From NCBI GenBank assembly GCA_033664045.1, contig GCA_033664045.1_3674.1: a stretch of 64,000 nucleotides of DNA. One strand, 5' to 3'. The position numbers and the translations under genes were made by a program. The notes under the pieces were generated by a model. It searched no databases, was not told the DNA's origin, and worked only from the letters and a program-made list of their open reading frames with translations. The DNA comes from a phage. Of the stretch, positions 5,392-32,690 are shown piece by piece (the stretch's first letter is position 1; the number at the start of each line of letters is the position of its first letter).

Positions 5392-5557
5392 CTTGTTTCA
5401 CAAGCTCGTAGAGCTCACCTTGGCTTGTCTCATAAAGGCAAATACGTTTACCATTGTCCCGATATACATCGACAAGATACGCTGTTTCACCTGCAAACAC
5501 GACACCACAGGCCAGACATGCCGCCATGAACAAAATTGCCAACAGAAAATCTTTCAT
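5351..5557 (-). CDS. small secreted/periplasmic protein (68 aa)
   Basis: N-terminal signal-peptide-like LLAILFMAACLACGVVFAGE; lies immediately downstream of endolysin. Confidence 0.4.
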   Translation of the reverse strand: MKDFLLAILFMAACLACGVVFAGETAYLVDVYRDNGKRICLYETSQGELYELVKQGEAGSCPRTHFFE

Positions 5558-5620
5558 GGTTAAACCCCCTCAAACATTTTATGAGGTGACAATACCACTT
5601 CCGTGTGGTTATGTCAATGA

Positions 5621-6091
5621 TCAATCCAGGACAACACCGCCTGCCTTTTTAAACACCTCGATCAACTTCTCAATCTTCTGTTCATGCTGACCATATCCAG
5701 CACCAGGTAACGAAGCCCAACGGGAACGGCATTTGTGGATAGCTTCGTGGATACGCCCTTCGTCAATGTCGGAGAGAGCCTTGCACTCACGGATCAGTTG
5801 CAACGCAATCTTGTCCTGACTGGCAGGGCCAAAATCTGGTAATCCTAGCTGTTTCATATAGTGTTTAGCAAACTTCTCCAAAATCTGGTAACGCCCAGCA
5901 GCGGAGGAGGTAAGTTTGGCATTTAGCTTAACGTAAACACCGGGATGCTTGCTGTAATCGCTGAACAGCTTGCCACCGACTATGACATCGTATCCCCGAT
6001 CCTTGGTAGGTTGTCTACCATTATCTGTACCTTCTGAATATGCGATCATATCCAAGAAAGCTTTTCGTTGAACGTTTTTATCAAGTTTCAT
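5621..6091 (-). CDS. endolysin, lambda R-type lytic transglycosylase
   Basis: Near-colinear similarity to lambda R as recalled: QRKAFLDMIAYSEGTDNGRQ...GYDVIVGG...AGRYQ...WASLPGAGYGQ; RBS GGAGAG 8 nt upstream. Confidence 0.9.
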   Translation of the reverse strand: MKLDKNVQRKAFLDMIAYSEGTDNGRQPTKDRGYDVIVGGKLFSDYSKHPGVYVKLNAKLTSSAAGRYQILEKFAKHYMKQLGLPDFGPASQDKIALQLIRECKALSDIDEGRIHEAIHKCRSRWASLPGAGYGQHEQKIEKLIEVFKKAGGVVLD

Positions 6092-6159
6092 TTTTCATAC
6101 TCTCCAGTTTACTCATAACTAGCCCGATCAACAACACTGCATAGTGTGGTTATGTAGGT

Positions 6160-6188
6160 GCCAATTGAAAAACCATCATTCAATTGGC
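6160..6188. promoter_or_regulatory. perfect 10-bp inverted repeat between ligase and endolysin genes
   Basis: GCCAATTGAA-n9-TTCAATTGGC; no following U-tract, so operator or RNA stem-loop is more likely than a terminator. Confidence 0.35.
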
Positions 6189-6215
6189 TACCGTTACCTA
6201 CTAAACCATCCTACA

Positions 6216-7499
6216 TCATTCCAGAACCTCCCAAGTGTCTGGGTTAACATTTCGGACGCAGATACCGACAGGGAATTGGTAGTTGTTGTCTTCTGTCCTT
6301 GCTTGGTATTTGAAGGTGACAAACTTGCCGATCATTTCCTGCATCCTGTCATAGCTACGCTCCTCGTGCGTGCCTTTCATCTTCATTTTAACAACAACAC
6401 CTTCCTTGTCAACACAGATAAGAACACCTTCATCATTCTTATCTTTCTCAACGTCAATAACTTTCACCTCTGCGTCGTTGAACTTTTTCCATTTCAATGC
6501 TTCAGATGTTCGCTGACCATACTCATACTTACCACAGAAGTTACGCATAATGGTACCTTCATATCCTTCGGACATGAATATACCAACAGATTCTTCGCAA
6601 TGATCAACTGTGTACGCAAGCTCTGCGTCAACAACCTTGATATGGTCAAGCATCAGGGTGGTAACGGTATCCTCTGCATCCATAAGATCTTTGCAGCGTC
6701 CAGACTCTGTTTCTGGATCCCACCACACCTTGTCGCTAGGAATATCAAAAATGTGATACTCCAGATCGTAGCTACAGTACCCACCGTAACGCAAATCATC
6801 ACGAACAGGCTCAACATCGACAGGAATATCTACCTTGTTGAAGTTTTTGTACGTTGATAAGCCTGCCTTAATTGCGGCATGACGGCGTTTTTTATCTGCC
6901 TCATAGTCTTTATCGATCTCGGCCTGAATCTCTTCCTGTGTGCGCCACCGTTTAGCAAGAGACACTATTTTCTGCAAAGGAAGACCATGAATGTATAGTT
7001 CCCCATCAAGTTGTTTAATCCCAGTGGTAGAATGGAAAGAACGAAGTTGCTCTAAAAGCTTTCCTTGAATAGGGTAGGACTTATTGCCACGGGAAATAAA
7101 TTTAGGCTCACCATTTTGGAAAACAACAAGCAGACGAAGGCCATCTAACTTACGCAAGATCCAGCAAGGTAATTTAAGTGCCTTGCCACGCTTCAGATAG
7201 TCATGCACCAGCATGGGTAAAAGGTCAACACCCTGCTCGCAATCTTCCATGTTTTCAACATACCCCAGACGGACTTGTTTTTCCCACTTACTGATCGCTT
7301 CCAGCTCGGCCTGTTGCTCAGCTGTAGTCTCGTTGGCACGACCTACGTTCTTAGGTGTGCATACCGTCTCTTTGTACTGCAATTTACCGTCAAGCTTGCC
7401 AAACTCTACGATAACCTTTTCGCCATCTGTAAATACTTTCCATTGCTGGTAACTTCCATCTTTATTCAGTGCGTACAGTGTTGTTTTGATCTGATGCAT
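6216..7499 (-). CDS. ATP-dependent DNA ligase
   Basis: Adenylation motif I ILRKLDGLRLL (KxDGxR) plus EGTIMR and KWKKF motifs; length suits NTase plus OB domain. Confidence 0.85.
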   Translation of the reverse strand: MHQIKTTLYALNKDGSYQQWKVFTDGEKVIVEFGKLDGKLQYKETVCTPKNVGRANETTAEQQAELEAISKWEKQVRLGYVENMEDCEQGVDLLPMLVHDYLKRGKALKLPCWILRKLDGLRLLVVFQNGEPKFISRGNKSYPIQGKLLEQLRSFHSTTGIKQLDGELYIHGLPLQKIVSLAKRWRTQEEIQAEIDKDYEADKKRRHAAIKAGLSTYKNFNKVDIPVDVEPVRDDLRYGGYCSYDLEYHIFDIPSDKVWWDPETESGRCKDLMDAEDTVTTLMLDHIKVVDAELAYTVDHCEESVGIFMSEGYEGTIMRNFCGKYEYGQRTSEALKWKKFNDAEVKVIDVEKDKNDEGVLICVDKEGVVVKMKMKGTHEERSYDRMQEMIGKFVTFKYQARTEDNNYQFPVGICVRNVNPDTWEVLE

Positions 7500-9623: not shown

Positions 9624-9974
9624 TCAGTAGATGTTTTGTTTAATCTCTATTCCAAACTTTTTAAACGAGTCAGCTGCAAGCATGAATTTACGAGCCGCTG
9701 ATGGATTAGAAGTATGCACGAAAATCTTCACGTTGTCAACTACAGGAGGCTTACCAAATACAAATTTTTCCTCCAACATAGATAGGCAATCGTACCCTTC
9801 GAATACCTCTCCAAGGTCGTTGTCCATATGCCACTCAGAAACGCGTCTGTAGAGCTTTTTATTATCGTTAATAAAATCCATAAACTCGGAGGAATTCTTT
9901 AGCCAAATAGCGTCTTGGAGCCCATAATTTGACGGATCTCTCAAGTCATCAAGCCACACAATCAACTTCTTCAT
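9624..9974 (-). CDS. small receiver-like (Rossmannoid) domain protein, function unknown
   Basis: Conserved-position pattern LIVWLDDLRD ... HMDNDLGE ... IFVHTSNP ... K is reminiscent of a CheY-like fold. Confidence 0.3.
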   Translation of the reverse strand: MKKLIVWLDDLRDPSNYGLQDAIWLKNSSEFMDFINDNKKLYRRVSEWHMDNDLGEVFEGYDCLSMLEEKFVFGKPPVVDNVKIFVHTSNPSAARKFMLAADSFKKFGIEIKQNIY

Positions 9975-10906
9975 TGCATATAGTCCCAGTTGTGGAAATA
10001 GTAATCAAGTATCTCACGGCGTTCCTGCTCCAGGAGACAGTTCCACACGTCTTCTGTGTAATTGCTACGAATGAAGTTTACCATGCCGTAAAACTCTTCG
10101 TCAACACGTTTAAATATATCATCACCCCAAATCTTCCAAGCTTTACTCCTCATTACGGCCTTCCGTGCCAGATAGTATGGAGACTTGATCTTCAGCTGCA
10201 GATCATAAGGGTAGTAAGGCTTACGAATCATATACCCTTCACCTCTTGTTTCTGCAGCTAATTCTTTTGCATAGCTGAACGGAATTTCACGCACAGTGTG
10301 AGGACGTTTTGCACCAAGGTATTTGGCAATCCCATCTAAAGCTGCTTCTGGTAGCATTATTCCAGAATCATTATATCTGCAACCTATCAAATATGCTCCA
10401 TGATCTTCCTGAACAATATGCGGATCTGAAGGGTGACAAATTTCAAACATGAATGTCATGTTTTCATTGCCCATAACCTTCTTGATAAGATCTAAATTAC
10501 CACATTGCTCCCGGATGGTTTCCTTTGCAAGGTTACAATATGGAGAATCAAGAGATCCGGTTGTTGAGAACAATAGTTCCCCTTTATGAGATGATACCAC
10601 ACCGAGGAATCCGTTCTTTTTCTCTACCGCCGTCACAAGCTTATTGTCAGGCAGGTTGGTGGAATTTTCTCCCAAGTTAAACACTTTTGTGAAGGGCCAT
10701 GCCACAACATTTCCTTCATTACCGACAACAATGCCTCGGCACTCCAGCAAACGAGGGGACAAATGCCATAAATTGTTGTAAAATACTTTTCTGGCATATT
10801 TATAGATCTTTAACCCGAGATCTGGGTGATATCTGCTGGTTACAAGACCTTTGTCAACTAGGTCGTCTGCATTAAAATACTTCATCATACGTTCCTCATT
10901 TGTCAT
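9971..10906 (-). CDS. ATP-dependent RNA ligase-like nucleotidyltransferase (Rnl2-like)
   Basis: Motif I VEKKNGF (KxNG), motif IV EGYMIRKP (T4 Rnl2 EGYVLKP), motif V LQLKIKSP; a separate DNA ligase exists at 6216-7499. Confidence 0.6.
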   Translation of the reverse strand: MTNEERMMKYFNADDLVDKGLVTSRYHPDLGLKIYKYARKVFYNNLWHLSPRLLECRGIVVGNEGNVVAWPFTKVFNLGENSTNLPDNKLVTAVEKKNGFLGVVSSHKGELLFSTTGSLDSPYCNLAKETIREQCGNLDLIKKVMGNENMTFMFEICHPSDPHIVQEDHGAYLIGCRYNDSGIMLPEAALDGIAKYLGAKRPHTVREIPFSYAKELAAETRGEGYMIRKPYYPYDLQLKIKSPYYLARKAVMRSKAWKIWGDDIFKRVDEEFYGMVNFIRSNYTEDVWNCLLEQERREILDYYFHNWDYMQ

Positions 10907-10949
10907 TTTGTCAGCCTATCCTGCCACACAAATAACCTAGTGTCAACAC

Positions 10950-10978
10950 TTGAAATTAACAAAACAGTTAGGTATACT
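10950..10978 (+). promoter_or_regulatory. sigma70-like promoter for kinase/phosphoesterase operon
   Basis: TTGAAA-17 nt-TATACT, about 28 nt upstream of the GGAGG RBS and ATG at 11007. Confidence 0.5.
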
Positions 10979-11006
10979 ATCATTGAAATTAAAACGGAGG
11001 ATTGCT

Positions 11007-11414
11007 ATGTCTAAAATGCTATATATCGTGCGTGGTCTACCAGGGTCTGGCAAATCAACACTGGCAAATGCGCTATCTTTAGAAGGCCTGTATCCCCATT
11101 TTGAGAACGACATGTTCTGGTACGACGATGACGGCAATTACAACTGGGATGCAAGTAAAGTAACACTTGCAGCAAAATGGTGCAAAGATAACGTAGAAGA
11201 TATGATGCGTATGGGATACGACCGTATCGTGGTAAGTAATACGTTTACAAAAGAAAAATATGTGCAAGAATATATTGACATGGCAATCAGCTATGGGTAT
11301 AGTTATACCGTAATCGTGGTTGAAAACCGCCACGGTAATAAAAGCATTCATGCTTCAGACGAGGTTGTGGATCGTATGGAACGCCAACTTAAAAACTGCA
11401 TCAAACTTAAATGA
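11007..11414 (+). CDS. P-loop polynucleotide 5'-kinase-like protein
   Basis: Walker A LYIVRGLPGSGKST at N-terminus, like T4 Pnk kinase domain (GCPGSGKST); start set at ATG 11007 after GGAGG. Confidence 0.55.
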   Translation: MSKMLYIVRGLPGSGKSTLANALSLEGLYPHFENDMFWYDDDGNYNWDASKVTLAAKWCKDNVEDMMRMGYDRIVVSNTFTKEKYVQEYIDMAISYGYSYTVIVVENRHGNKSIHASDEVVDRMERQLKNCIKLK

Positions 11415-11421
11415 GGAATGT

Positions 11422-11976
11422 ATGAAATACTTTGTAACAAGCGACACACACTTTCTCCACCAGCGGGTCATGGAGTTTGAGTCATGTCAAAAACACAGAT
11501 CTCAGTATGATCACAATCTTGACAGTATGAATGCTGGAATCATCGCCGAGTGGAACTCTGTTGTGTCACCTGCAGACACTGTGTTCCACTTGGGAGATAT
11601 TGCATGCACTAATGATAAGAATATCAACAAATTGCTCCCAGATATTCTAAATATGTTGAACGGACATATTATTCTTGTTCGTGGCAACCATGACACAAGG
11701 ACGACTGTCAGAATTATGAAAGAGTTCTATCATGAGGTTGTAGATTATTACGAGCTTCGCCACAACAAGAATTTGATCTGTATGAGCCATTACCAGTTTG
11801 CAAAGTGGAACAGAAAGCCTCACGGATCAGTCCAACTGTTCGGTCATGCTCACGGAACCACACAACAGTTGTTTGGCAGGCAGTTTGATGTCGGTTGGGA
11901 TGTATGGGGGAGACTCTTACCATTAGAAGAGGCATACCGTATTGCAATGAGTTTTGATATTGACAGCAGGGAGTAA
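11422..11976 (+). CDS. calcineurin-like metallophosphoesterase (candidate end-healing phosphatase)
   Basis: Motifs SDTHF, HLGDIA, VRGNHD, FGHAHG; start set at ATG 11422 after GAGGAA. Confidence 0.6.
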   Translation: MKYFVTSDTHFLHQRVMEFESCQKHRSQYDHNLDSMNAGIIAEWNSVVSPADTVFHLGDIACTNDKNINKLLPDILNMLNGHIILVRGNHDTRTTVRIMKEFYHEVVDYYELRHNKNLICMSHYQFAKWNRKPHGSVQLFGHAHGTTQQLFGRQFDVGWDVWGRLLPLEEAYRIAMSFDIDSRE

Positions 11977-12023
11977 TCCCTGCTATTTTAAAGAAAATTG
12001 CCACACAAGGAGAATCAGGAGAT

Positions 12024-12374
12024 ATGAAAGATGGGGATAAGCTGCTATATCTTAAAGTCCCCCTTGAAATACTATCTATGTCAAAAGTTTTGAATGACAC
12101 AACTGGGGAGGTTGTTGTTCTTGACTTGTATGACAAGATCGTATACTGCTACCTGCACAACTGGTATAAGCTTGGAGGAAATTCACGCTTTACTCCAAGC
12201 ACAAGGAAAATTGCAGCAGATGTTGGGATAAAGAAAACAAAAGCAGCAGCGTGCGTTAAAACTTTAGAATGTGCAGGAGTGGTTGAAATATCCACACAAG
12301 GGAGAGGTAAAAGATGCACATTTTCCAAAGTTTTGCCACCAGAAGAAGTTATTCGAATGTCAACAACTGGTTAG
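12024..12374 (+). CDS. putative winged-helix/HTH DNA-binding protein
   Basis: STRKIAADVGIKKTKAAACVKTLECAGVVE HTH-like segment; lies directly upstream of the palindromic repeat array. Confidence 0.35.
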   Translation: MKDGDKLLYLKVPLEILSMSKVLNDTTGEVVVLDLYDKIVYCYLHNWYKLGGNSRFTPSTRKIAADVGIKKTKAAACVKTLECAGVVEISTQGRGKRCTFSKVLPPEEVIRMSTTG

Positions 12375-12446
12375 ACCAGTAAAAACTTAAATATCTGTAC
12401 TATAAGGATTCGTATGTTTTATGTTCACTATGAAACAGAGGTTAGT

Positions 12447-12536
12447 AACTGTCCGTGATACGGACACTACTGTCCGTCACGCGGACACATCTGCCCGTAA
12501 TACGGACACTAACTGTCCGTGATACGGACACATAAA
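12447..12536. repeat. four phased copies of 15-bp palindrome GTCCGT-N3-ACGGAC
   Basis: Copies at 12451-12465, 12472-12486, 12493-12507 (GCCCGT variant), 12515-12529; spacing 21-22 bp. Confidence 0.85.
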
Positions 12537-12539
12537 GAA

Positions 12540-12645
12540 TATAACTAAAATAACTAAATAATAAAAAATAAAAGATCTAGTACTTATGGTACTAAGTACA
12601 TGTACTTAACTTATGTAGAATATACTAGATCCTAAGTACCATGTT
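12540..12645. repeat. AT-rich tract with nested inverted repeats
   Basis: GTACTTA-tggtac-TAAGTAC and AGATCTAGTA...TACTAGATC around 12574-12640, preceded by an A/T-rich run. Confidence 0.7.
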
Positions 12646-12664
12646 TTAAATTTATTACTTACTA

Positions 12665-12900
12665 TGGGTAGTGTCGGCCCTTCATTGGCACTCGCCTACG
12701 AGGGGCGAGATGCCGGGCCTCCCTAGTGCACACAATAACAGAGGTGCATACATGCAGGTCTGTTAACATGTGTGGGGAGCGAAGCGGTAGCGCAGGCCAA
12801 AGGCCGAGCACTAATGTGGGCCACCGACGAAAGCTTGTCAGCGCCGTAAGGAGTCGGTTGAGAGCCTCTCGCGCGAGTTTGGATAAAGTTTATGTGTGGA
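12665..12900 (+). other. GC-rich segment, candidate structured RNA or origin-associated element
   Basis: Local GC visibly higher than flanks; nested stems GGCCC...[GGCA-CTCGCC-tacgagg-GGCGAG-a-TGCC]...GGGCC, GGCC-aaa-GGCC, CTCGCGCGAG; the overlapping ORF 12726-12941 lacks an RBS. Confidence 0.25.
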
Positions 12901-13035
12901 AACTGATAATGAGGCCCCTAAATCGCTCCACAGTTATATAAACCATACCAAGTAATGCAATCGCACCAGTTTGATAGAAAAGCTCGTTACAAAGCGATAC
13001 AGTGAGTTTTTCTATAACTTGAAGAGGAGGCAGCT

Positions 13036-13614
13036 ATGAGTTCACGCAAAGATGACCGTGAAAAGATTGCAAAACGTTATCAGAATGAAGAACAGATGGA
13101 GAAAACTTTCAAGTGGAAGCCTGGTTTCCAGCGTAATCATTCTGACGCTCGTGATCGTAAGCATCCAGACAAGTGGCTAACCCCGCCAAATGATGACATG
13201 AAGGTTGGTGATGAGAAGGAGTTGTCACCGGGGAAAGATGGCAACTACATTCGCACTAAGGAAGCTAGTCCAAAGGATGACAGCTATCTTGTAGATAAGG
13301 TTCTTGCTAGTATTGATGTAGATGTTGATACTGTACGAAACACTTTCCTTGGTTGGTATCGCACAGGGTTTTTCGACATCAAGGCTATTCGTCGTGTTTG
13401 TGATATTAAAAAGTCTGCCTACGATGATGACTCTTTACATCGAACCCTAAGACAATATTCAGAGAGATACGGTCATCCAGTTATCACTCTTGACGATATT
13501 AACGAAGTTATGTATCATGTAGAGGTTGTTGCAGGTAGGTTCGGTGATGCATATCTCGGTATTCTTTCTGCAAAGGATGAGGTAATGTTAAATAAAATTT
13601 ACTATGAACGCTGA
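13036..13614 (+). CDS. hypothetical protein (192 aa, charged N-terminus)
   Basis: ORF with RBS GAGGAGG upstream. Confidence 0.5.
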   Translation: MSSRKDDREKIAKRYQNEEQMEKTFKWKPGFQRNHSDARDRKHPDKWLTPPNDDMKVGDEKELSPGKDGNYIRTKEASPKDDSYLVDKVLASIDVDVDTVRNTFLGWYRTGFFDIKAIRRVCDIKKSAYDDDSLHRTLRQYSERYGHPVITLDDINEVMYHVEVVAGRFGDAYLGILSAKDEVMLNKIYYER

Positions 13615-13813
13615 GGAGCGCTTGATGAACAACCCGGTAGCAAAGAACTGTAATAAGTTCAACAAGTCTGCAATTCACACTGACAGGAAAAAGAGCTGGT
13701 CTCCTGACATTGACGAGGAGCTTGAGAGTTACTTTGAAGACCTGGTCACTAATGCAGATGAGGTTGCGATTAAAGAATACGCAGACAGGAAGGATAAGGC
13801 CGGAATCTGTTGA
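13604..13813 (+). CDS. hypothetical protein (69 aa)
   Basis: Overlapping ORF downstream of 13036 gene. Confidence 0.35.
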   Translation: MNAEERLMNNPVAKNCNKFNKSAIHTDRKKSWSPDIDEELESYFEDLVTNADEVAIKEYADRKDKAGIC

Positions 13814-13838
13814 CAAAAATAGTGTTACCTGATAAGAT
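13810..13838 (+). promoter_or_regulatory. sigma70-like promoter
   Basis: TTGACA-17 nt-TAAGAT. Confidence 0.5.
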
Positions 13839-13889
13839 CTGCAATATGATGTGATGCAATTTTAACTTACGAGGTCTACAGGTAATGCT

Positions 13890-14132
13890 ATGTTTAAGGT
13901 TAAGCTCGTTTTTCGTTCCATGAATGAGGATTATTTAGAAGATGAAGGTGAATTTCGTGCACTGGATGATGCAATAGATTTTGCCAACGACTTAGCTTGT
14001 ATGAATACGGGTTATGGGTTATGTTGTTGGGATGGGGGTGTTCAGATCGGTGATAGCAAGATCTTCTACTTCTACCCTGAGCCCGATAACAAACAAATTA
14101 AGTATGTTTTATTTATTTGTGCTTTACAATGA
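13890..14132 (+). CDS. hypothetical protein (80 aa)
   Basis: ORF downstream of promoter. Confidence 0.45.
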   Translation: MFKVKLVFRSMNEDYLEDEGEFRALDDAIDFANDLACMNTGYGLCCWDGGVQIGDSKIFYFYPEPDNKQIKYVLFICALQ

Positions 14133-14421
14133 GGTTGTTTTCGTGTATCATGATGAATATCCAATTTAAAGATGAATTTGATGGCTTTATCTCCGGATGC
14201 TTTGAAACAGGGTTCGGAGAAGACTGAGTTCCCCTTAGAGGGCTTGATAGTGCACCACACTTAAAATGGTAGGGGCAGCCAGCACATGACGATGTGACCC
14301 CAGCCAACCTGTAACAAGGTCGAGCCGAAGCGCGGGTAATAGGTCTCTGGTAACCCACTTGTTGGGTCTTGCTGGTTCAGGACGCTGGACAAGTCGCAGG
14401 GAATACCACCCTGCGGCGAAC

Positions 14422-14450
14422 TTGACAATCAGTATTTGCTATGATAAAAT
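14422..14450 (+). promoter_or_regulatory. consensus sigma70 promoter
   Basis: TTGACA-17 nt-TAAAAT. Confidence 0.6.
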
Positions 14451-14478
14451 CCACCTATCACGTGATAATGGAGGAAAC

Positions 14479-14817
14479 ATGGCGGATACAACTAAAAAGC
14501 GTCGCCGTAGAGGCAGACCTCTGAAAGAGGAGTCCAACGCCATTCAGCTAGAGAAGAACATCCTTGATATGAAGGAATCTTTTATAGCGATGGTTCCAGA
14601 AGCTCACAAAGTTTTAAGAGAGCTGATGTTGGACCCGAAAACCAAACAAAATATTCGTCAAAGCATTGCAGAGTATGTTCTTGATAAGGCAGACCGAATG
14701 CAGGAAGAATATGATGAGATGTTTGGTGAAGAGGAAGAGGTGGTAGTGGAAGAGGCTGAAAAACCAGCACCTTTTATGCCATTTACCACAGAAATACAGC
14801 CTGTTAGCAATAGTTAA
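14479..14817 (+). CDS. hypothetical basic/acidic protein with RGRP (AT-hook-like) motif
   Basis: Start at ATG 14479 after GGAGG; KKRRRRGRPLKEE near N-terminus, acidic C-terminal half. Confidence 0.5.
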   Translation: MADTTKKRRRRGRPLKEESNAIQLEKNILDMKESFIAMVPEAHKVLRELMLDPKTKQNIRQSIAEYVLDKADRMQEEYDEMFGEEEEVVVEEAEKPAPFMPFTTEIQPVSNS

Positions 14818-14826
14818 AATATTTTC

Positions 14827-14855
14827 TTGACAAACTTTGCTTAACAGTGTAATAT
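14827..14855 (+). promoter_or_regulatory. sigma70-like promoter preceding tRNA cluster
   Basis: TTGACA-17 nt-TAATAT about 60 nt upstream of the first tRNA. Confidence 0.55.
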
Positions 14856-14913
14856 TGTAAACATGGTCTCCCACCTTTTCTGGCGGCTAAGGTGTAAAAG
14901 AAAGCCACCCAGT

Positions 14914-14988
14914 GCCCTGTTAGCTTAGTGGATAAAGCAGCGGCCTTCTAAGCCGTTGACACTGGTTCGAGTCCAGTACGGGGTGCCA
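14914..14988 (+). tRNA. tRNA-Arg (anticodon TCT)
   Basis: Hand-folded cloverleaf: acceptor GCCCTGT/ACGGGGT with G-U pairs, anticodon loop CTTCTAA, T-loop TTCGAGT, encoded CCA. Ends approximate. Confidence 0.75.
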
Positions 14989-14992
14989 AATT

Positions 14993-15079
14993 GGGGAGTT
15001 ATCCCGTAGAGGTAGCGGTGTAGACTGTAAATCTATTGTCATTGCGACTCGGGTGGTTCGACTCCACCACTCCCCACCA
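14993..15079 (+). tRNA. tRNA-Tyr (anticodon GTA), class II with long variable arm
   Basis: Acceptor GGGGAGT/ACTCCCC, anticodon loop CTGTAAA, T-arm GGTTCGACTCC, encoded CCA; architecture parallels E. coli tRNA-Tyr. Confidence 0.8.
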
Positions 15080-15193
15080 AATTTATATTTTTAAATGTAT
15101 AAATCATACAGATAATGGCATTGATATTTATCGTCGTTTATACTAGTCACTAACTGCTCGAAAATCAGTGTCATTATCAGTATTGTTTATAAA

Positions 15194-15284
15194 AGAGGGT
15201 AGGGAGCAATGGTGCTCAAGCGGTCTTGAAAACCGTCCCGTTGAGGATGACTCGATGATGGTTCGATTCCATTACCCTCTGCCA
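15194..15284 (+). tRNA. tRNA-Ser (anticodon TGA), class II
   Basis: Acceptor AGAGGGT/ACCCTCT, anticodon stem-loop CGGTCTTGAAAACCG, long extra arm, T-arm GGTTCGATTCC, CCA. Confidence 0.75.
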
Positions 15285-15372
15285 TATTGTTGACCTTGTA
15301 ATTAAGCGAAAGCCGGAAGCAGAACCGGATTATCAAATGTTACAGTCGTCATCGCCGACTAGCAACATGGTC

Positions 15373-15481
15373 AACATACTGAGCTAGGTAAGCCCTTTGG
15401 CAAGGGCGAGGATTTTTAATCCTGAAAATAGACGAGGTAGTCGTTGAATACATAGGTGGTTCGATTCCACCGCCTAGCACC
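15373..15481 (+). tRNA. aberrant tRNA-like gene (about 107 nt), possible pseudo-tRNA
   Basis: Perfect acceptor GCTAGGT/GCCTAGC and T-arm GGTGGTTCGATTCCACC, but anticodon region AGGAT-TTTTA-ATCCT and a roughly 30-nt extra arm; CC but no encoded CCA. Confidence 0.35.
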
Positions 15482-15486
15482 TTTTT

Positions 15487-15562
15487 GCTGATGTAGCACA
15501 ATTGGTAATGCAATTGATTTGTAATCAATAGGTTGCAGGTTCAAGTCCTGCCATCAGCACCA
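15487..15562 (+). tRNA. tRNA-Thr (anticodon TGT)
   Basis: Acceptor GCTGATG/CATCAGC, anticodon stem-loop ATTGA-TTTGTAA-TCAAT, T-arm GCAGGTTCAAGTCCTGC, CCA. Confidence 0.8.
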
Positions 15563-15563
15563 A

Positions 15564-15638
15564 GGCCCTGTAGCTGGAAGGTTCAAGCAAGCGACTCATA
15601 ATCGCCAGACGGTGGTTCAATTCCACCCAGGGCCACCA
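15564..15638 (+). tRNA. tRNA-Met-type (anticodon CAT; elongator Met or Ile2 not resolved)
   Basis: Acceptor GGCCCTG/CAGGGCC fully paired, anticodon loop CTCATAA, T-arm GGTGGTTCAATTCCACC, CCA. Confidence 0.7.
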
Positions 15639-15649
15639 AATAATAAATA

Positions 15650-15726
15650 CTCCGCGTAGCTCAGCTTGGTAGAGCGCCTGATTTGGGATCAGGAGGTCGA
15701 GTGTTCGAATCACTCCGTGGAGACCA
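15650..15726 (+). tRNA. tRNA-Pro (anticodon TGG)
   Basis: Acceptor CTCCGCG/CGTGGAG, canonical D-arm GCTCAGCTTGGTAGAGC, anticodon stem-loop CCTGA-TTTGGGA-TCAGG, T-loop TTCGAAT, CCA. Confidence 0.85.
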
Positions 15727-16830: not shown

Positions 16831-17255
16831 TGTCTAAGATTTACGGACCGTGTTCTGAAAAGCAGAAGATGATCCTAGAAAACGATGCAGATATTTTGGT
16901 AATCGGCGGTGCCGCAGGGTCTGGCAAGTCGTTCCTCTTGCAGTTGATGCCACTTAAAATTATTGATGACCCCCACAGCTCTGTGGTTATGTTCCGAAGA
17001 ACAACCCCGCAGTTGGAAGGTGAGGGTGGACTATGGCCTAAAGCAGTAGCTATTTATAGTGATCTGCCTGAAAACATTAAGCCAAAGTTCAGAGAGAAGG
17101 ATCATAAGTTCATTTTTCCACGGTTTGATCCGAACACTGGTAAGTGGGATAGAAGCAAAAAGGGAGCTGTTGTAAAATACTGCCACATGGAGTATGTACA
17201 AGATAAGCTTAACCATCAGGGGCTTGAGTACACCATGGTTTGCTTCGATGAGGGT
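16830..17255 (+). CDS. terminase large subunit, exon 1 (ATPase N-terminus)
   Basis: Walker A LVIGGAAGSGKSF and Walker B MVCFDEG; frame stops at TAA 17256-17258, exactly where the intron begins. Confidence 0.8.
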
Positions 17256-17574
17256 TAATTTGTAGCTCTCGTAAAACCTCCCTAATTGCGGGGAAATCTT
17301 TATTATTGACACCACCAACCTGTTATGGTAACATAATAGAGGCTTCGAAGAGAGATCGAAGGTATGGTAACAGTGTGTTAATTTAGATAATCCGCAGCGA
17401 AGCATCCGATAGGATGAACGTTCAACGACTAGTCGAGAGACGTAGAATCAAGCGATTCGAAACGGGAGGGTAAGCGGTTGTTGTCGCTTATAAGATATAG
17501 TCTGGTCTGCATGGAGACATGCAGCTGCCTGAAAATGGCGGGGCAAGACTAGCGACCTTGCCTGAACATAAACG
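17256..17574 (+). mobile_element. group I self-splicing intron (no ORF)
   Basis: Core elements P AATTGCGGGGAAA (17284-17296), Q AATCCGCAGC (17389-17398), R GTTCAACGACTAGTC (17420-17434), S AAGATATAGTCT (17492-17503); P1 exon GAGGGU (17250-17255) pairs with GCUCUC (17265-17270) including U.G at splice site; ends with G17574. Confidence 0.75.
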
Positions 17575-25909: not shown

Positions 25910-26368
25910 ATGCTAAAGGTTAAATGTCAAACAAGGTTCAACCTAAAGCGTTTAGATCGCTTCTACAAAGAACTTGTGAGACTTGAAAGTAAAACAATAA
26001 CCTACGGCTTTTATGACGAACCTCACCCGTCAGGCTTAAATATGGCAACATTGGCAGCCATTCACAACTTCGGTTGGAACGGGCTGCCTGTTCGCAATTT
26101 CATGGAGACAGCCTTTGCATTTCACAGCACTCAACTGCAGACCTTGACAGAAAAATTGTTGAGAGCTATGGCCAGGGGATCAAGTGCAGAGGCTATTCTT
26201 AAGCAGATGGGGGACACAGGGGCCAAAGCTATCCAGTTTGTTATTGAGGCTGGACAGTTTAGTAATCCTACTGTTAGTGAGCAGTGGGCACAAGAAAAGG
26301 GCTTCAACGAGGCTATGCGGCATTACGATGTGCTGCTTGAATCTGCAACCTTTAAAATCGGACAGTAA
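25910..26368 (+). CDS. hypothetical virion assembly protein
   Basis: ATG 25910 after GAGGG and promoter; head-tail connector neighbourhood. Confidence 0.5.
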   Translation: MLKVKCQTRFNLKRLDRFYKELVRLESKTITYGFYDEPHPSGLNMATLAAIHNFGWNGLPVRNFMETAFAFHSTQLQTLTEKLLRAMARGSSAEAILKQMGDTGAKAIQFVIEAGQFSNPTVSEQWAQEKGFNEAMRHYDVLLESATFKIGQ

Positions 26369-26384
26369 AAAATAAGGGGGTTGA

Positions 26385-26810
26385 GTGGCAGCAGGTTATA
26401 AGCTGATAGGAAAGAACAGACTAATACCTCGTAAAACATTCAAAGGTCGCCATAGAGTGTATAACAAAACAGTTGGTGGCCCTTTTGCCAACGAGGGGTT
26501 AGAACTTGAGTATGAAGAGTTTGATGTCTTAGAGTGTGTTGTGCAGCCGTTGACAGGAAGGGCAGCTAAAGATTACTCCTCTCAAATAAACCCTGAAGGT
26601 GACAGACAGTACGAGGCTTTTACAGTTTACTCCTCAACCAAGTTGTATAGTCCTGACGAAGGAACATATGCAATGGCTGACCAAATTCAGCTGCCTGACA
26701 TCCGTGGTGACTTGAAATGGTTTACCGTTTTAAAATGCGATGCATATGTTACCTCTGGTGGTGGGAGATATAGATTTTTTGTGGTAGAAGAGCCTGAAGG
26801 AGAGAACTGA
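26385..26810 (+). CDS. hypothetical head-tail connector/completion protein
   Basis: GTG start after AAGGGGG; gene order. Confidence 0.45.
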   Translation: MAAGYKLIGKNRLIPRKTFKGRHRVYNKTVGGPFANEGLELEYEEFDVLECVVQPLTGRAAKDYSSQINPEGDRQYEAFTVYSSTKLYSPDEGTYAMADQIQLPDIRGDLKWFTVLKCDAYVTSGGGRYRFFVVEEPEGEN

Positions 26811-27361
26811 TGGAAGCTTTCGAAAAAGTTTTTTCTGATCTTGAAACAACCATTGCTAAGCTCGTCAAGGTTGCCACAGGAAGAACTGTAGTTCTGGCAG
26901 AAAGCTCTACCATACCGAAGCCGGAAGGTGAGTTTGTACTTTTACAAACCTTGGCGATCAATCCCACCACTTGGGAAGATAATGAGTTTCAAGATGCGGA
27001 GGGTAATGCTTACGTAACACACAGTTACACTGTTACTTATCTGTTAACAGCTTATCGTGGCAGGGCATATGCTGCACTTAGCAGAGTATTGCAAGCAATA
27101 AACCTTCCAATGTTTTATGACAAGTATTTCCCTCTGGGATCGTGCTTTGCCTACTCTAACAATTCAACAATTTCACCTCAAAGAGTGCCGTTGAATAAGC
27201 AGACGTATGAAAATAGAGCCACTGTGATGCTGACATTTAACGTAAGGTTTGTTGAAACAGACATTGGGGCTTTTGAGGATCTTGAGGGAATTAAGGCTGA
27301 AATAACCACACACTTCCCTTCACCCAATTCTGGTAAAGCGGTTACAGACAGTGGTCAGTAA
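26810..27361 (+). CDS. hypothetical tail completion protein
   Basis: ORF with overlapping stop/start; gene order. Confidence 0.45.
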   Translation: MEAFEKVFSDLETTIAKLVKVATGRTVVLAESSTIPKPEGEFVLLQTLAINPTTWEDNEFQDAEGNAYVTHSYTVTYLLTAYRGRAYAALSRVLQAINLPMFYDKYFPLGSCFAYSNNSTISPQRVPLNKQTYENRATVMLTFNVRFVETDIGAFEDLEGIKAEITTHFPSPNSGKAVTDSGQ

Positions 27362-27433
27362 TCGTTATAATTGTGTAGTGTAATGATTACACTGCGTGTT
27401 TGATATCCGTGCACAGATATTAAGAGGAAACAA

Positions 27434-28810
27434 ATGCCATATTTAGATAAAGTGGTAGATGTTACAGTTAACCTCGGAACCCAGCCTATTGACACTGTAG
27501 GTTTCGAAACTCCCCTGTTCATCGCTATCCACAACAACTTTACTGAGCGAGCTCGCGTGTATGCAGAGCTGGATCAGATGGTGGAAGATGGTTTCGCACA
27601 AGGCTCTGCAGCGTATGAGTTTGCAGCAAAAGCTTTTGGTGGTGTATTCCCTCCACAATACGTTATGATCGGCAGACAGGCCAAAGAAAAGACAACTGTA
27701 GATTTTAAAGGTATTGCTGCCGCAGCTGATACCGATGTCGTAATGACTATTGCAAAAGGTGGCTACAATACTTCTCTGATAGTGCCTATCTCTGGTGGAA
27801 CAGGTGCAACTCAGATTGCAGAGTCGATGAAGACTAAAATTGAAGCAGATGATAGCTTGAACGATATCACTGTAGAGGCTTCTGAAGGTGTTCTCACCAT
27901 CACTGGTGACTGTACTGTTGGTTACCATACTGGTAACTATACAATCAAAAATATCGCCAATGCTGAAAAACCTTCTACAGTAGTTGATAAGATCAATGCT
28001 GAGCGTGACAATTGGTACTTCCTGTGCCATGAAGACCACACCGACATTGAAGCATGTGCTAAGTGGGCTCAGGCTAACTACAAGCTGCATGTCTACTCTA
28101 CTGCAGAAGATGTGACGGGTAAAGATAATAACATCGCCACCAAACTGATGGCTGCACAATATGACAGTGTCGGCATGTACGATCCTCGTGCAGATAAGGA
28201 CTTCCCGGAGGGTGGTATCATAGGTGCTATGGCATCCAACGATCCGTCTTACGGCGACAGCTTGCACTTAAAACAGATGCCAGGTGTGATTGCACCATCT
28301 CTGACTTTAACTCAGCGTATGGCTATTTGGGAAAACCACGTTAACTTCTATAGAATGATTAACGGTGTTGGCGCTTTCTGGGAAGGTAAGTGTGCTTCAG
28401 GTCAGTATGCAGACGCTATTCGTTTTGCACACTGGATCAAGTTCAGATCTGAAGAGTCCATGTTTGGGTACATGCATCGCCGCTCCAATATGGGTTTAAG
28501 CATGAAGATGTCTGATGATGATCTTCCGGTTATTAAGTCTGTTCTGATGAACAACCCGATCAACACTGGCATTAAGAATGGTGCGATCCTGACAGGTTTT
28601 GACGAAGACAATAATGTATTCTACGACCCGATCATCACAGTTCCTAAACGTGCAGAAATCCCAACTAATCAGTTGGCTGCTCGTGTTCTGGAAGGTGTGA
28701 AAGTAGAACTGGTGTATAATAACGCCCTGCACTTCGTTCGTATCCGGATCAACGTCCTTCTGGACAAAGTTGGTTCTAAATCCACCAATGCTGTTGCAAT
28801 GACTGAATAA
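27434..28810 (+). CDS. tail sheath protein, putative (alternative: large major tail protein)
   Basis: 458-aa abundant-looking protein followed by a 157-aa ORF, then chaperone pair and tape measure (sheath-tube-chaperone-TMP order). Confidence 0.45.
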   Translation: MPYLDKVVDVTVNLGTQPIDTVGFETPLFIAIHNNFTERARVYAELDQMVEDGFAQGSAAYEFAAKAFGGVFPPQYVMIGRQAKEKTTVDFKGIAAAADTDVVMTIAKGGYNTSLIVPISGGTGATQIAESMKTKIEADDSLNDITVEASEGVLTITGDCTVGYHTGNYTIKNIANAEKPSTVVDKINAERDNWYFLCHEDHTDIEACAKWAQANYKLHVYSTAEDVTGKDNNIATKLMAAQYDSVGMYDPRADKDFPEGGIIGAMASNDPSYGDSLHLKQMPGVIAPSLTLTQRMAIWENHVNFYRMINGVGAFWEGKCASGQYADAIRFAHWIKFRSEESMFGYMHRRSNMGLSMKMSDDDLPVIKSVLMNNPINTGIKNGAILTGFDEDNNVFYDPIITVPKRAEIPTNQLAARVLEGVKVELVYNNALHFVRIRINVLLDKVGSKSTNAVAMTE

Positions 28811-28820
28811 GGAAGCCTAG

Positions 28821-29294
28821 ATGGAAACTCAAATTTTAACTCCTTATGCGTATGACCCTAAAAAGGTCAAACTGTATCTGATGCAGCAGCGTGTCACTGG
28901 CTTCGCTGCTGACACCAAGATCGTTGTTTCAAGAAACGAAGACAACATCTACCCTCACGTTGGTGTGGATGGCGAAATGTCTGCGGCCCTGTCTCGTAAC
29001 CAATCTGGTGTTATGACTGTATCTTTGCAGAACACTTCTGTATGGAACGCTTACCTTTCTGACTGGCAGAAACAGGCATCGATTACTGGCCTGGTATTCT
29101 TCCCGGTTCTGCTGGAAGGTAGCCAGGGCCCTGGTATTTCCACAATCGGTTGGATCCAGAAACAGCCTGATCTGACTTACGGAACCGAAGTAGGTCAACT
29201 GGACTGGGATATCGGTATTCTGGATGCATGGCTCAACCGTGATAACATCACTGGTGCTCTTACTGGCCTCGCAGGTCTTGCAGGTATTATCTAA
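28821..29294 (+). CDS. tail tube protein, putative
   Basis: 157-aa ORF between putative sheath and chaperones. Confidence 0.45.
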   Translation: METQILTPYAYDPKKVKLYLMQQRVTGFAADTKIVVSRNEDNIYPHVGVDGEMSAALSRNQSGVMTVSLQNTSVWNAYLSDWQKQASITGLVFFPVLLEGSQGPGISTIGWIQKQPDLTYGTEVGQLDWDIGILDAWLNRDNITGALTGLAGLAGII

Positions 29295-29384
29295 GGGCAC
29301 ACTTTATCATAAGCCTCACCTTCGGGTGGGGCTTTTTGCTTTTATGGTTTTGGCACATACTCTTGAATTGCTTGAAAGGTTAAA

Positions 29385-29413
29385 TTGACAATGCACTATA
29401 ATCATGGTAAAAT
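29385..29413 (+). promoter_or_regulatory. consensus sigma70 promoter with extended -10
   Basis: TTGACA-17 nt-TAAAAT (TGGTAAAATAC). Confidence 0.55.
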
Positions 29414-29456
29414 ACACAAATATGGTGCACAACATGACTAATAAGGATGCTATAAA

Positions 29457-29930
29457 ATGGCTATAAACTTTAGACCTACAACAGAGATTGATTTAGCAGG
29501 GCACAACTTTGTGATCACCCATTGGGGACCGATGAAAGCAATGAAAAACATGCCTAAAATCGGTAAGATTGTGGCTGTCCCGCTAGGTGCTATCGGTGGA
29601 TCTATTATCTCAGGCGGTCAGAATATGGCAGAGGTCCTTCCTACTGCTCTGGCTTACCTGTTCCAAGAACTTGATGATAACTCTATTGAAGAGCTATTTA
29701 AAATCTTGTTCGAAGATATTACCGTAGATGGTGTGGATAAGCTTAACCCGGATGTTGTGTTTGCGGGGCATCTGCTGGAGATGATTAAGCTGGCAGGTAA
29801 GGTTCTGGAGGTTAACTACGGCTGTTTTTTCACACAAGACGGTTTAGGAAGCCTTCTGGAGATGTTACAGCAGATGGGTATGATTCAGCAGGTGAACAAC
29901 CTGGATCAGACTCCGGAAGAGCAGGAATAA
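29457..29930 (+). CDS. tail assembly chaperone (G-like, zero-frame product)
   Basis: Position immediately upstream of tape measure; contains slippery heptamer near its 3' end. Confidence 0.65.
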   Translation: MAINFRPTTEIDLAGHNFVITHWGPMKAMKNMPKIGKIVAVPLGAIGGSIISGGQNMAEVLPTALAYLFQELDDNSIEELFKILFEDITVDGVDKLNPDVVFAGHLLEMIKLAGKVLEVNYGCFFTQDGLGSLLEMLQQMGMIQQVNNLDQTPEEQE

Positions 29931-30190
29931 GCAAGGTTGTTGTGAGGGCCAGTGAGTGGGCAGCCAAGAACAGTTCACTCAACTGGTTCGACTTTCTTTG
30001 GTGCAGGGTGCTCAAGAATTTCAAAGGGGAAAATTTTGAATCGCTAAATCTTGCAGATATGGCGTATTTCCTGAAGCTCTGTGAGTATCTTGATATCGAA
30101 GAATTCCTAGATACCGTCCAAAACAGGGAAATGGAGCGGGAGCAGAAGGCTGCCGCAGCTGCTGCGAAAGCTAAGCGCAGGAGAGGATAA
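29825..30190 (+). CDS. tail assembly chaperone -1 frameshift extension (GT-like fusion with 29457-29831)
   Basis: Zero-frame C TGT TTT TTC gives heptamer U UUU UUC at 29825-29831; the -1 frame is open from there to the stop at 30190. Confidence 0.6.
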   Translation, partial: FFHTRRFRKPSGDVTADGYDSAGEQPGSDSGRAGISKVVVRASEWAAKNSSLNWFDFLWCRVLKNFKGENFESLNLADMAYFLKLCEYLDIEEFLDTVQNREMEREQKAAAAAAKAKRRRG

Positions 30191-30244
30191 TCTAAGGGCC
30201 GGATTCCTTTTCTGGGATCTGGCCCTTTTTATTATGAGGAAACC

Positions 30245-32584: not shown

Positions 32585-32597
32585 TAAGCAGCACACA

Positions 32598-32620
32598 GGG
32601 GGCTCCGGCCCCCTTTATTT
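32598..32620 (+). terminator. rho-independent terminator after tape measure gene
   Basis: GGGGGC-tccg-GCCCCC followed by TTTATTTT. Confidence 0.7.
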
Positions 32621-32628
32621 TATCGGTG

Positions 32629-32657
32629 TTGTAAAAACGGCTATTTTATGATACAAT
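32629..32657 (+). promoter_or_regulatory. sigma70-like promoter
   Basis: TTGTAA-17 nt-TACAAT. Confidence 0.45.
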
Positions 32658-32690
32658 ATTTAGATGGTATCGGAGTGTCCTGGAGAGGTT

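Follow-up and report, generated by a model that had tools for sequence, protein, structure and literature searches.

A GC-rich structured element in an origin-like setting, common to rV5-like phages and capsid-encoding plasmids of Escherichia coli

A GC-rich element between a putative initiator gene and a tRNA cluster

We analyzed a 64,000-nucleotide (nt) stretch of phage DNA (GenBank assembly GCA_033664045.1, contig GCA_033664045.1_3674.1; hereafter, the window), the source of which is an rV5-like Escherichia coli phage of the genus Vequintavirus, and in it a GC-rich structured non-coding element at positions 12665 to 12925 on the + strand. On the left side of the locus, an RNA ligase gene on the - strand is followed on the + strand by genes for a polynucleotide kinase, a phosphoesterase, and a 116-amino-acid (aa) helix-turn-helix protein (12024 to 12374), a winged-helix protein that PHROG and Pfam similarity marks as a putative replication initiator. 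Next comes a 660-bp gap that holds the element, and then a 192-aa gene, a few small genes, and a tRNA cluster. Within the gap, the element is preceded by four iterons, TGTCCGTnnnnCGGACA (12446 to 12531), which are direct repeats of 21 to 22 bp with internal dyad symmetry and a spacing of 21/21/22, and by an AT-rich stretch (12534 to 12664; GC content of 23 to 28%), a candidate DNA-unwinding region with GTACTTA/TAAGTAC inverted repeats and two GATC sites. As set out below, the element is single copy, non-coding, constrained, compensated, and + strand biased, and in every type of replicon in which we found it, iterons and an AT-rich stretch accompany it.

The preliminary description of this DNA, made from the sequence alone, had singled out positions 12665 to 12900 for a sharp rise in base composition, and this is borne out: measured in 100-nt windows, the GC content goes from 0.23 to 0.28 at 12500 to 12649 to 0.53 to 0.59 at 12650 to 12899 and is about 0.40 thereafter, with 2-kb bins across the whole window ranging from 0.41 to 0.47. 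The nested helix that had been drawn there, GGCCC..[GGCA-CTCGCC-loop-GGCGAG-a-TGCC]..GGGCC, is also present, at 12676 to 12719 on the + strand (hairpin 1). By itself, the fold of the single sequence is not beyond chance (relative to dinucleotide shuffles, the + strand has a z of -1.85 and the - strand one of -3.71), and the RNAalifold z-scores of a 93%-identical phage alignment, -1.7 and -2.6 for the + and - strands, respectively, are uninformative. Since the fold is only weakly better than those of the shuffles, the case for structure must come from comparison with relatives; the compensatory changes that the preliminary description had proposed to look for were found once distant copies were taken in. 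What it had missed is the context: the element reaches about 12925, i.e., some 25 nt to the right of the segment noted, forms the right-hand part of an origin-like arrangement, and is common to satellite-like plasmids.

Distribution among phages, plasmids, and a divergent phage

The intergenic region from 12380 to 13040 has matches in 119 phage records, at 89 to 97% identity, all of them from rV5-like Vequintavirus, and in the 119 full-length phage records the element occupies one place per record. The window differs from every record examined by private substitutions at 12743, 12787, 12838, 12869, and 12907 and by an extra G (see below). Eighteen of the 119 matching GenBank records carry the name "Campylobacter phage" (host, Campylobacter jejuni); their sequences are about 96% identical to those of E. 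coli rV5-like phages across the locus, which suggests that they are mislabeled or contaminant genomes.

A sensitive search recovered a partial element in a 13,689-bp circular E. coli "plasmid" (NZ_CP020521.1), and further plasmid members are CP148565.1, NZ_CP035869.1, NZ_CP178698.1, CP134895.1, and NZ_CP043822.1, along with two metagenome contigs. The plasmids of this family are circular and 13.2 to 13.9 kb in size (NZ_CP043822.1 is a 39.6-kb trimer), and they encode a major capsid protein, baseplate and tape-measure proteins, and an O-like, HTH_36 replication initiator; no recognizable mobilization genes were found in them. The baseplate protein, the tape-measure protein, and an adjacent tail-region protein are 40 to 55% identical to products of the region from 25997 to 33377 of the window. 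Judged from this gene content, they are probably plasmid-borne satellites of rV5-like phages, and they are called satellites below. We found no description of such a capsid-encoding plasmid family in the literature searched. Their non-coding region, 2.2 to 2.9 kb long, holds iterons of its own as well as a variable count of hairpin modules separated by the repeated motif UGUGUGGG.

When a whole plasmid was compared with the window, the element was the only non-coding sequence common to phage and satellite. Satellites usually copy the packaging signal of their helper, and the sharing of this one sequence could thus point to a duplex DNA site for a phage protein, e.g., a packaging (pac) site with repeats of TGTGTGGG as terminase-binding repeats; such repeats occur two to four times, variants counted, in the satellite copies. 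We nevertheless regard a site of this kind as quite unlikely. Compensated intrastrand pairing and strand asymmetry in folding, both described below, are unexpected for a duplex site; TGTGTGGG is not enriched in the window (6 matches versus 2.9 expected, with 7 of 100 shuffles reaching 6); and none of the 119 records starts or ends at the locus, the position of which in the records is arbitrary.

Side observations on the satellite non-coding region concern its stretches outside the element. Upstream of the iterons, about 1.2 kb (positions 5400 to 6500 of satellite locus L022 in our numbering, with matching parts in L021 and L023 to L025) is about 95% conserved and has no annotated open reading frame (ORF). 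It begins just past a strong terminator and a TTGACA-type promoter-like site and may give rise to a long non-coding transcript extending into both the iterons and the element. Directly after the AT-rich tract (L022, 6790 to 6830, and equivalents), CCCCCTAACCCCCC-AGGGGGAATGGGGAGGGATCAGAGAGTGGGG consists of a C-run/G-run hairpin and then four + strand G-runs, a possible G-quadruplex or R-loop initiation zone.

A third type of replicon is the metagenomic rV5-like phage IMG/VR UViG_3300010279_000001 (here, the divergent phage), in which the element is about 85% identical. It has a different initiator, of 143 aa, different iterons (GATACATATTTGCATCAGAT), and a different A-rich tract. At 1900 to 2770 of this phage, the whole initiator/iteron/AT-rich cassette is swapped for an unrelated one, the element and the downstream gene are retained, with the recombination junction at the element's 5' edge.

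A covariance model of the core (R1) finds one copy in the 64-kb window (89.9 bits; E = 4e-20) and one match per phage or satellite monomer at 89 to 96 bits, with a weak match to plasmid pMB4926_4, the most divergent plasmid copy (19.7 bits; E = 0.035). With a single copy per genome or monomer, a dispersed repeat, i.e., a hairpin like those of repetitive extragenic palindromes (REP) or miniature inverted-repeat transposable elements (MITE), was rejected, and so was a host origin of the GC-rich DNA, for which no E. coli chromosomal match was found. The preliminary description had recognized no known RNA family by eye, and the Rfam search that it proposed gave the same outcome: with Rfam 15 run over the window at gathering thresholds, the element had no match, the best sub-threshold match being Bcj14 (14.5 bits versus a threshold of 59). 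ARAGORN and Rfam found no tRNA or transfer-messenger RNA at 12665 to 12925, and Rfam gathering and E-value searches of a second GC-rich region of the window, two satellites, and the divergent phage returned nothing (E ≤ 0.1 for the satellites and the divergent phage). Being absent from Rfam, the element would constitute a new family, for which a usable seed alignment and covariance model are at hand.

Searches with the flanking 116- and 192-aa proteins found no relatives of either outside Vequintavirus, locus searches with the initiator and with the satellite capsid protein returned nothing in viral or genome contigs, and the exact iteron had no match in IMG/VR. The pattern GAAAGCTTGYCAGCGCCGNAAGGAG had no matches in genome contigs and one in IMG/VR; a looser form of it recovered seven metagenome loci, one of which is a chance match in a GC-rich bacterial contig. 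All 15 IMG/VR matches of the pattern AATGTGG-N45-75-TCTCCCGCGCG were due to chance. In the searches made, the element was found only in Vequintavirus phages and capsid-encoding E. coli plasmids.

Constraint and compensated helices in a non-coding sequence

The element is under constraint. Over 18 copies, 17% of the columns are variable in 12665 to 12900 and 13% in 12781 to 12900, against 31% in the spacer at 12375 to 12439, 28% in the tail at 12901 to 13035, and 33 to 39% at third codon positions.

This constraint is not that of a gene, and the element (12665 to 12925) is non-coding. The 71-aa ORF at 12726 to 12941 noted in the preliminary description exists and lacks a ribosome-binding site, as had been stated (no GGAGG-like site precedes its GTG start), but it is not the sole overlapping ORF, since one of 49 aa lies on the - strand at 12662 to 12811. 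Its 71-aa form is unique to the window, where one extra G in the G-run at 12774 to 12777 (GTGTGGGGAG) fuses two frames; this G is absent from all 19 other phage copies. All 20 phage copies and most satellites keep one frame open between about 12770 and about 12890, and short ORFs are annotated at the locus in some GenBank records, both of which would fit a gene for a small arginine-rich protein, with a length of 56 aa in most relatives and of 71 aa in the window. The substitutions make such a protein extremely improbable. Variable columns in the open frame number 14/21/16 at codon positions 1/2/3, i.e., with no third-position excess; in the two flanking genes, the fraction of variable columns is 0.33 to 0.39 at position 3 and 0.06 to 0.11 at positions 1 and 2. 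The ratio of synonymous to non-synonymous single-site changes is 15:43, and the synonymous fraction of 0.26 compares with 0.25 expected at random. The 18 nt for "RKLASA" are identical between phages and satellites, with zero synonymous changes, and the codons beside them change amino acids as a by-product of stem compensation. Furthermore, the start, length, and stop of the ORF vary among lineages (71, 56, 89, and 65 aa), the frame meets a stop in pMB4926_4 and an early stop in the divergent phage, 1-nt indels fall in the element in the window, V18, and phita32, and neither Pfam nor PHROG has a family matching the product. The earlier view of the segment as a structured RNA or DNA element rather than a gene is therefore upheld, both by the non-coding pattern of substitution and by helices that are compensated in distant copies.

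With these copies included, the predicted helices, all on the + strand, are kept by pair changes on both sides, amounting to about ten pairs in five helices. In hairpin 1, the inner 10-bp stem is invariant over 20 phage copies and the outer GGCCC/GGGCC closure is 99% paired; NZ_CP020521.1 carries two pairs changed on both sides from G-C to U-A, and with this copy added, 99% of cells pair, compared with 34 to 48% when the partner is slid. The local closure competes with a possible long-range helix, P1, which the RNAalifold consensus models as 11 bp between UAGUGUCGGCC (12669 to 12679) and GGCCGAGCACUA (12802 to 12813). The terminal pair of P1 is U-A in 14 copies, U-G in 3, and C-G in 2; its satellite counterpart, GUGGGUCC/GGCCCAC, is a local hairpin at the same place relative to AAUGUGG, and the divergent phage preserves the pairing only if the register is shifted by one base. 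Hairpin 2 (12729 to 12774; CACACA / UAACAGA / UGCA-loop-UGCA / UCUGUUA / UGUGUG in the minimum-energy fold) is the least constrained module, with 90% of cells paired. In the divergent phage, C-G replaces A-U at one of its pairs; pangalan and phita32 have a disrupted apical stem; and typing phage 5 and Murica, with 18 nt deleted here, retain a hairpin that is shorter but perfect, CACACAUG/CAUGUGUG.

The conserved core common to phages and satellites (12813 to 12877) comprises AAUGUGG, a closing helix, helix Pa, a 24-nt interior, and GAGYCUCYCGCGCG. In Pa (12823 to 12828 with 12853 to 12858), three of the six pairs change on both sides (A-U/G-C/G-U, C-G/U-A, and A-U/C-G), and 100% of cells in the core alignment pair, versus 33 to 54% with the 3' partner slid by 1 to 3 columns; pMB4926_4 has an unrelated 7-bp stem, UCCGGAU/AUCCGGA, at the Pa position. 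The 24 nt between the Pa strands are invariant in phages and most satellites save for a C/U site and a GUAA/GGAA alternation, which fits a GNRA tetraloop closed by C-G and belongs to a mini-hairpin, C-C[GNAA]G-G, at 12844 to 12851. The closing helix GUGG/CYGC (12816 to 12819 with 12869 to 12872) shows one-sided, pairing-preserving changes only, and an alternative to it, GGAC/GUCU, has G-C, A-U, and G-U pairs but three A-C or A-A cells. Hairpin P3 (12869 to 12899; YCGCGCGAGUUU / loop / AAGUUU-AU-GUGUGG by RNAalifold), which is phage specific and G-U rich, competes with GUGG/CYGC for the CGCG tract; 98% of its cells are paired, and one pair is U-G in 14 copies, C-G in 5, and U-A in 1. The last stretch common to phages and satellites is the block GGCCCCTAAAT (12912 to 12922), at which the homology ends and to which GCCCCCTAAATGG, found after the core in satellites, corresponds in position. 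Between the satellite modules of pMB4926_4 and NZ_CP178698.1, read by eye, UCAC/GUGA is replaced by GUGC/GCAC (three pairs of one stem), and a second stem, UUUAGCU/AGCUAAA, becomes UUAAGCU/AGCUUAA by the exchange of one pair.

Other pairings and likenesses were considered and dropped. A long-range pairing of GGGGAGCGA with UCGCUCC (12774 to 12782 with 12923 to 12929) is broken in several relatives without compensation. A reading of CCGGAAGGAGGCAGC as resembling signal recognition particle RNA was rejected because it conflicts with the covarying helix Pa. We make no claim of a likeness to CRISPR repeats, which was seen by eye (GAGUCUCCCGCGCG..GGAUAAA with E. coli type I-E and the satellite Pa, CUGCC/GGCAG, with type I-F): the hairpin of the I-E repeat has not been preserved, Pa of the phages is different, and in the divergent phage GGAUAAA is not retained.

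The several domains, conserved loops, and compensatory changes would also be in keeping with a free-standing, trans-acting non-coding RNA (a regulator, protein sponge, or anti-defense decoy) that merely lies beside the origin. A core interior invariant over 24 nt in phages and most satellites is what a recognition surface might look like, the variable satellite hairpin modules split by UGUGUGGG resemble modular RNA, and the locus is within the RNA-repair and tRNA region of the phage. On balance, we think such an RNA improbable: no promoter or terminator of its own was found, no Rfam family matches, and the repeated adjacency to iterons and AT-rich DNA across at least five initiator or iteron specificities would be left as an unexplained coincidence.

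As to strand, the satellite copies fold 7 to 19 kcal/mol better on the + strand than on the - strand. G-U pairs contribute 12 to 18 kcal/mol on the + strand in five of the seven satellite copies and 6 to 8 kcal/mol in the other two, and 5 to 11 kcal/mol on the - strand. The GUAA/GGAA (GNRA) variation, the C(UUCG)G loops of two satellite modules, and the passage of one-sided changes through G-U pairs are RNA-like traits and point to RNA.

Origin-like setting and comparison with known systems

The 116-aa protein matches the PHROG phrog_12838, "replication initiation protein," at 2.5e-80, with weaker matches to other initiator PHROGs; it is at least 99% identical in 102 of the 119 phage records, and its RefSeq name is likewise "replication initiation protein." Of the features expected of an iteron-type origin, the locus has at least three direct repeats of about 17 to 22 bp by the initiator gene and an adjacent AT-rich region. 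Among relatives, iterons are gained or lost as entire repeats (JES2013 and V18 have a deletion of 21 bp, and O157 typing phage 14 has an insertion of 42 bp), and the AT-rich stretch is the most conserved part of the gap, with 12% of columns variable versus 31% in the spacer at 12375 to 12439. The order of iterons, AT-rich stretch, and element recurs in the window type, the divergent phage, and the satellites, and the orientation of the element relative to the iterons is identical in all replicons. The satellites carry at least four iteron types, with AT-rich tracts following the different iterons there and in the divergent phage; NZ_CP020521.1 has a second repeat set, TATCAACATATCAATnTGATATA, in three copies before its hairpin 1. 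That the same order is found with different iterons in each replicon type indicates that initiator-and-iteron cassettes are exchanged while the element stays. Three Logan contigs of related phages break off within or just past the iterons, probably through assembly collapse at the repeats and not at a physical DNA end.

The cumulative GC-skew minimum of the window lies at 10 to 12 kb. The authors of the rV5 genome paper noted that skew and gene orientation coincide and did not locate an origin by skew analysis (PMC3606486). The initiator gene is co-oriented with the element and immediately upstream of it, and no terminator-like site was found on the + strand from 10800 to 15000. The rV5 paper predicts no promoter upstream of the element (PMC3606486). 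With no promoter or terminator of its own found, any RNA from the element would be part of a longer read-through transcript from the initiator operon.

From position, conservation, and analogy, we infer an origin in the iteron region, transcription of the element, and a role for the element in replication. On these grounds, we put the chances at about even that the element is a cis-acting, + strand-specific folded module of an iteron-type origin. A version in which it acts as RNA, in the form of an origin transcript, is a tentative proposal that falls well short of probable, and we favor it slightly over a version with single-stranded DNA. In the RNA version, rightward transcription by host RNA polymerase would run out of the initiator operon, through the iterons and the AT-rich stretch, and into the element, the G-rich RNA of which would form P1, hairpins 1 and 2, and, in the core, hairpin Pa and its GNRA loop; the folded transcript would help to open or prime the origin for the T7-like replisome, as an R-loop or a primer RNA. 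Satellites with their own initiators and iterons would keep the module and thereby use the same downstream machinery. It is a more doubtful suggestion that the element represents a new class of origin-coupled structured RNA, namely, a common handle that fires the iteron origin of a myovirus with a T7-type replisome and that satellites copy to plug their own cassettes into the helper machinery.

In the version with single-stranded DNA as the active form, which has the same place and role and which we consider unlikely though well worth weighing, the + strand hairpins would serve as a single-strand initiation (ssi) signal after opening of the AT-rich stretch. In this role, they would allow priming or helicase loading by the gp4-like primase-helicase of the phage or by DnaG/PriA of the host, comparably to ssiA/ssiB of RSF1010 and G4-type sites. 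The recurrence of iterons, AT-rich stretch, and hairpins in every replicon type accords with this, as do the absence of a promoter or terminator framing the element and the frequency of short GC-rich stems with triloops and of GCGAAGC. The hairpins by the putative origin are orientation specific, as ssi signals are, the + strand bias being clear in satellites only, and the sharing of a site for priming or loading would account neatly for the retention of this very module by satellites that have initiators of their own. A pentamer, GTGTC, GGGTC, or TGGTC, stands at the 5' edge of the element in most members; such KKGTC pentamers, which resemble T7-type primase sites, are a lead only, and the element of pMB4926_4 is without one. 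The rV5 replisome includes a family-A polymerase and a helicase of the T7 gp4 type (PMC3606486), and RSF1010 primes on two 40-nt inverted repeats inside its iteron origin (PMC8567376). Against single-stranded DNA, the + strand advantage in satellites is owed mostly to G-U pairs, which contribute little to the stability of DNA, and GNRA/UUCG loops and long-range helices (P1 and the pairing of UGUGUGGG with CCCGCGCG) are more typical of RNA.

Several observations weigh against an origin module of either form, or against its RNA version. The initiator call leans on annotation and on a weak Pfam HTH_36 match (24.5 bits versus a cut-off of 25), few independent lineages stand behind the compensation (the four satellite cores in the alignment share one Pa state), and in NZ_CP020521.1 an insertion of 470 bp is tolerated between the element and the plasmid's own iterons. 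Because gene orientation switches where the GC skew does, the skew signal is confounded. The phage copies fold about equally well on the + and - strands, and triloops are many, including GCGAAGC at 12779 to 12785 and four GAA loops in pMB4926_4; triloops such as GCGAAGC and GAA are especially stable in DNA hairpins. No sigma-70-like promoter was found on the + strand at 12375 to 12665 and no terminator after the element, a promoter scan of the satellites found none immediately upstream of it, and the satellite rep gene sits downstream of the element.

The locus, with its putative initiator, iterons, AT-rich region, and conserved folded module, offers a concrete origin candidate for the rV5-like phages, a large group used for O157 typing and present in therapy collections. 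The 13-kb plasmids that carry the element together with genes for capsid, baseplate, and tape-measure proteins point to a family of satellites of a virulent myovirus, and the element, as the single cis element that these satellites share with the phage, makes the hijacking of replication or packaging between helper and satellite testable.

The surroundings of the locus have further features. The first gene 3' of the element in the ORF list, for the 192-aa protein (13036 to 13614, + strand), is restricted to Vequintavirus (120 records), and its product has no Pfam match. The RNA-repair-type genes adjoining the putative origin (9971 to 12000 and upstream) encode a T4 Rnl1-type RNA ligase, an AAA_33 polynucleotide kinase, and a metallophosphoesterase, and proteins with SIR2 and cREC_REC domains are encoded just beyond this set. 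All seven tRNAs lie at 14914 to 15726 (ARAGORN and Rfam); within the cluster, ARAGORN reports a 99-nt tRNA-like gene at 15383 to 15481 with an undetermined four-base anticodon (atcc), which GenBank records give as tRNA-OTHER or tRNA-Lys. A group I intron lies at 17246 to 17524 (Rfam RF00028; 84.3 bits; E = 5e-20; full-length match). The second GC-rich intergenic segment (GC content of 0.51 to 0.57), at 14185 to 14430, is directly followed by a consensus TTGACA-17-TAAAAT promoter; no Rfam family matches it, its fold z is -1.76, and it is 94 to 99% conserved in six relatives. Kinship between this segment (14190 to 14430) and the element was rejected, since they show no similarity.

Among known systems, the layout of G4-type single-strand initiation sites is comparable, one such site being located downstream of oriR in plasmid R1. 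In lambda ori, with its O protein, four iterons, and AT-rich region, a winged-helix initiator of the HTH_36/O-like type, dyad iterons of 19 to 22 bp, and an AT-rich stretch are found as they are here. However, lambda ori is embedded in the O gene, it includes no structured module comparable to the one of 250 nt described here, and the rV5-type initiator, at only 116 aa, has no visible C-terminal helicase-loader-binding domain, unlike lambda O. Origin transcripts prime replication at ColE1 (RNA II), the T7 primary origin, the T4 oriF/oriG R-loops, and pAMbeta1 (the rep transcript). These systems share with our proposal a structured G-rich transcript by an AT-rich origin region and a family-A polymerase, and in pAMbeta1 the rep gene is immediately upstream and co-oriented, as here. 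The ColE1, T7, and T4 systems (pAMbeta1 excepted) are without iterons and an initiator protein, both of which are putatively present here, and for these origin transcripts a dedicated promoter is known, which we did not find on the + strand at 12375 to 12665.

The cos site of P2 and P4 is a cis-acting site common to a helper phage and its satellite. Like the element, it is a short non-coding sequence that is the only nucleotide-level similarity between a helper-type phage and the elements that borrow from it. Unlike cos, the element keeps intrastrand pairing and adjoins the iterons of each replicon rather than genome ends, and unlike P4, the satellites described here are plasmids with capsid and tail genes. 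In its order of parts, the locus resembles oriV of RSF1010, in which initiator-binding direct repeats, an AT-rich region, and orientation-specific GC-rich hairpins follow one another in the same order and a replicon-specific primase acts on the hairpins (PMC8567376). The likeness ends with that order: ssiA and ssiB, each a 40-nt inverted repeat, lie on opposite strands, whereas here a single element of about 250 nt on one strand forms several predicted helices, with possible long-range pairing and GNRA/UUCG loops, and RSF1010 is a plasmid, whereas the element described here belongs to a 137-kb virulent myovirus.

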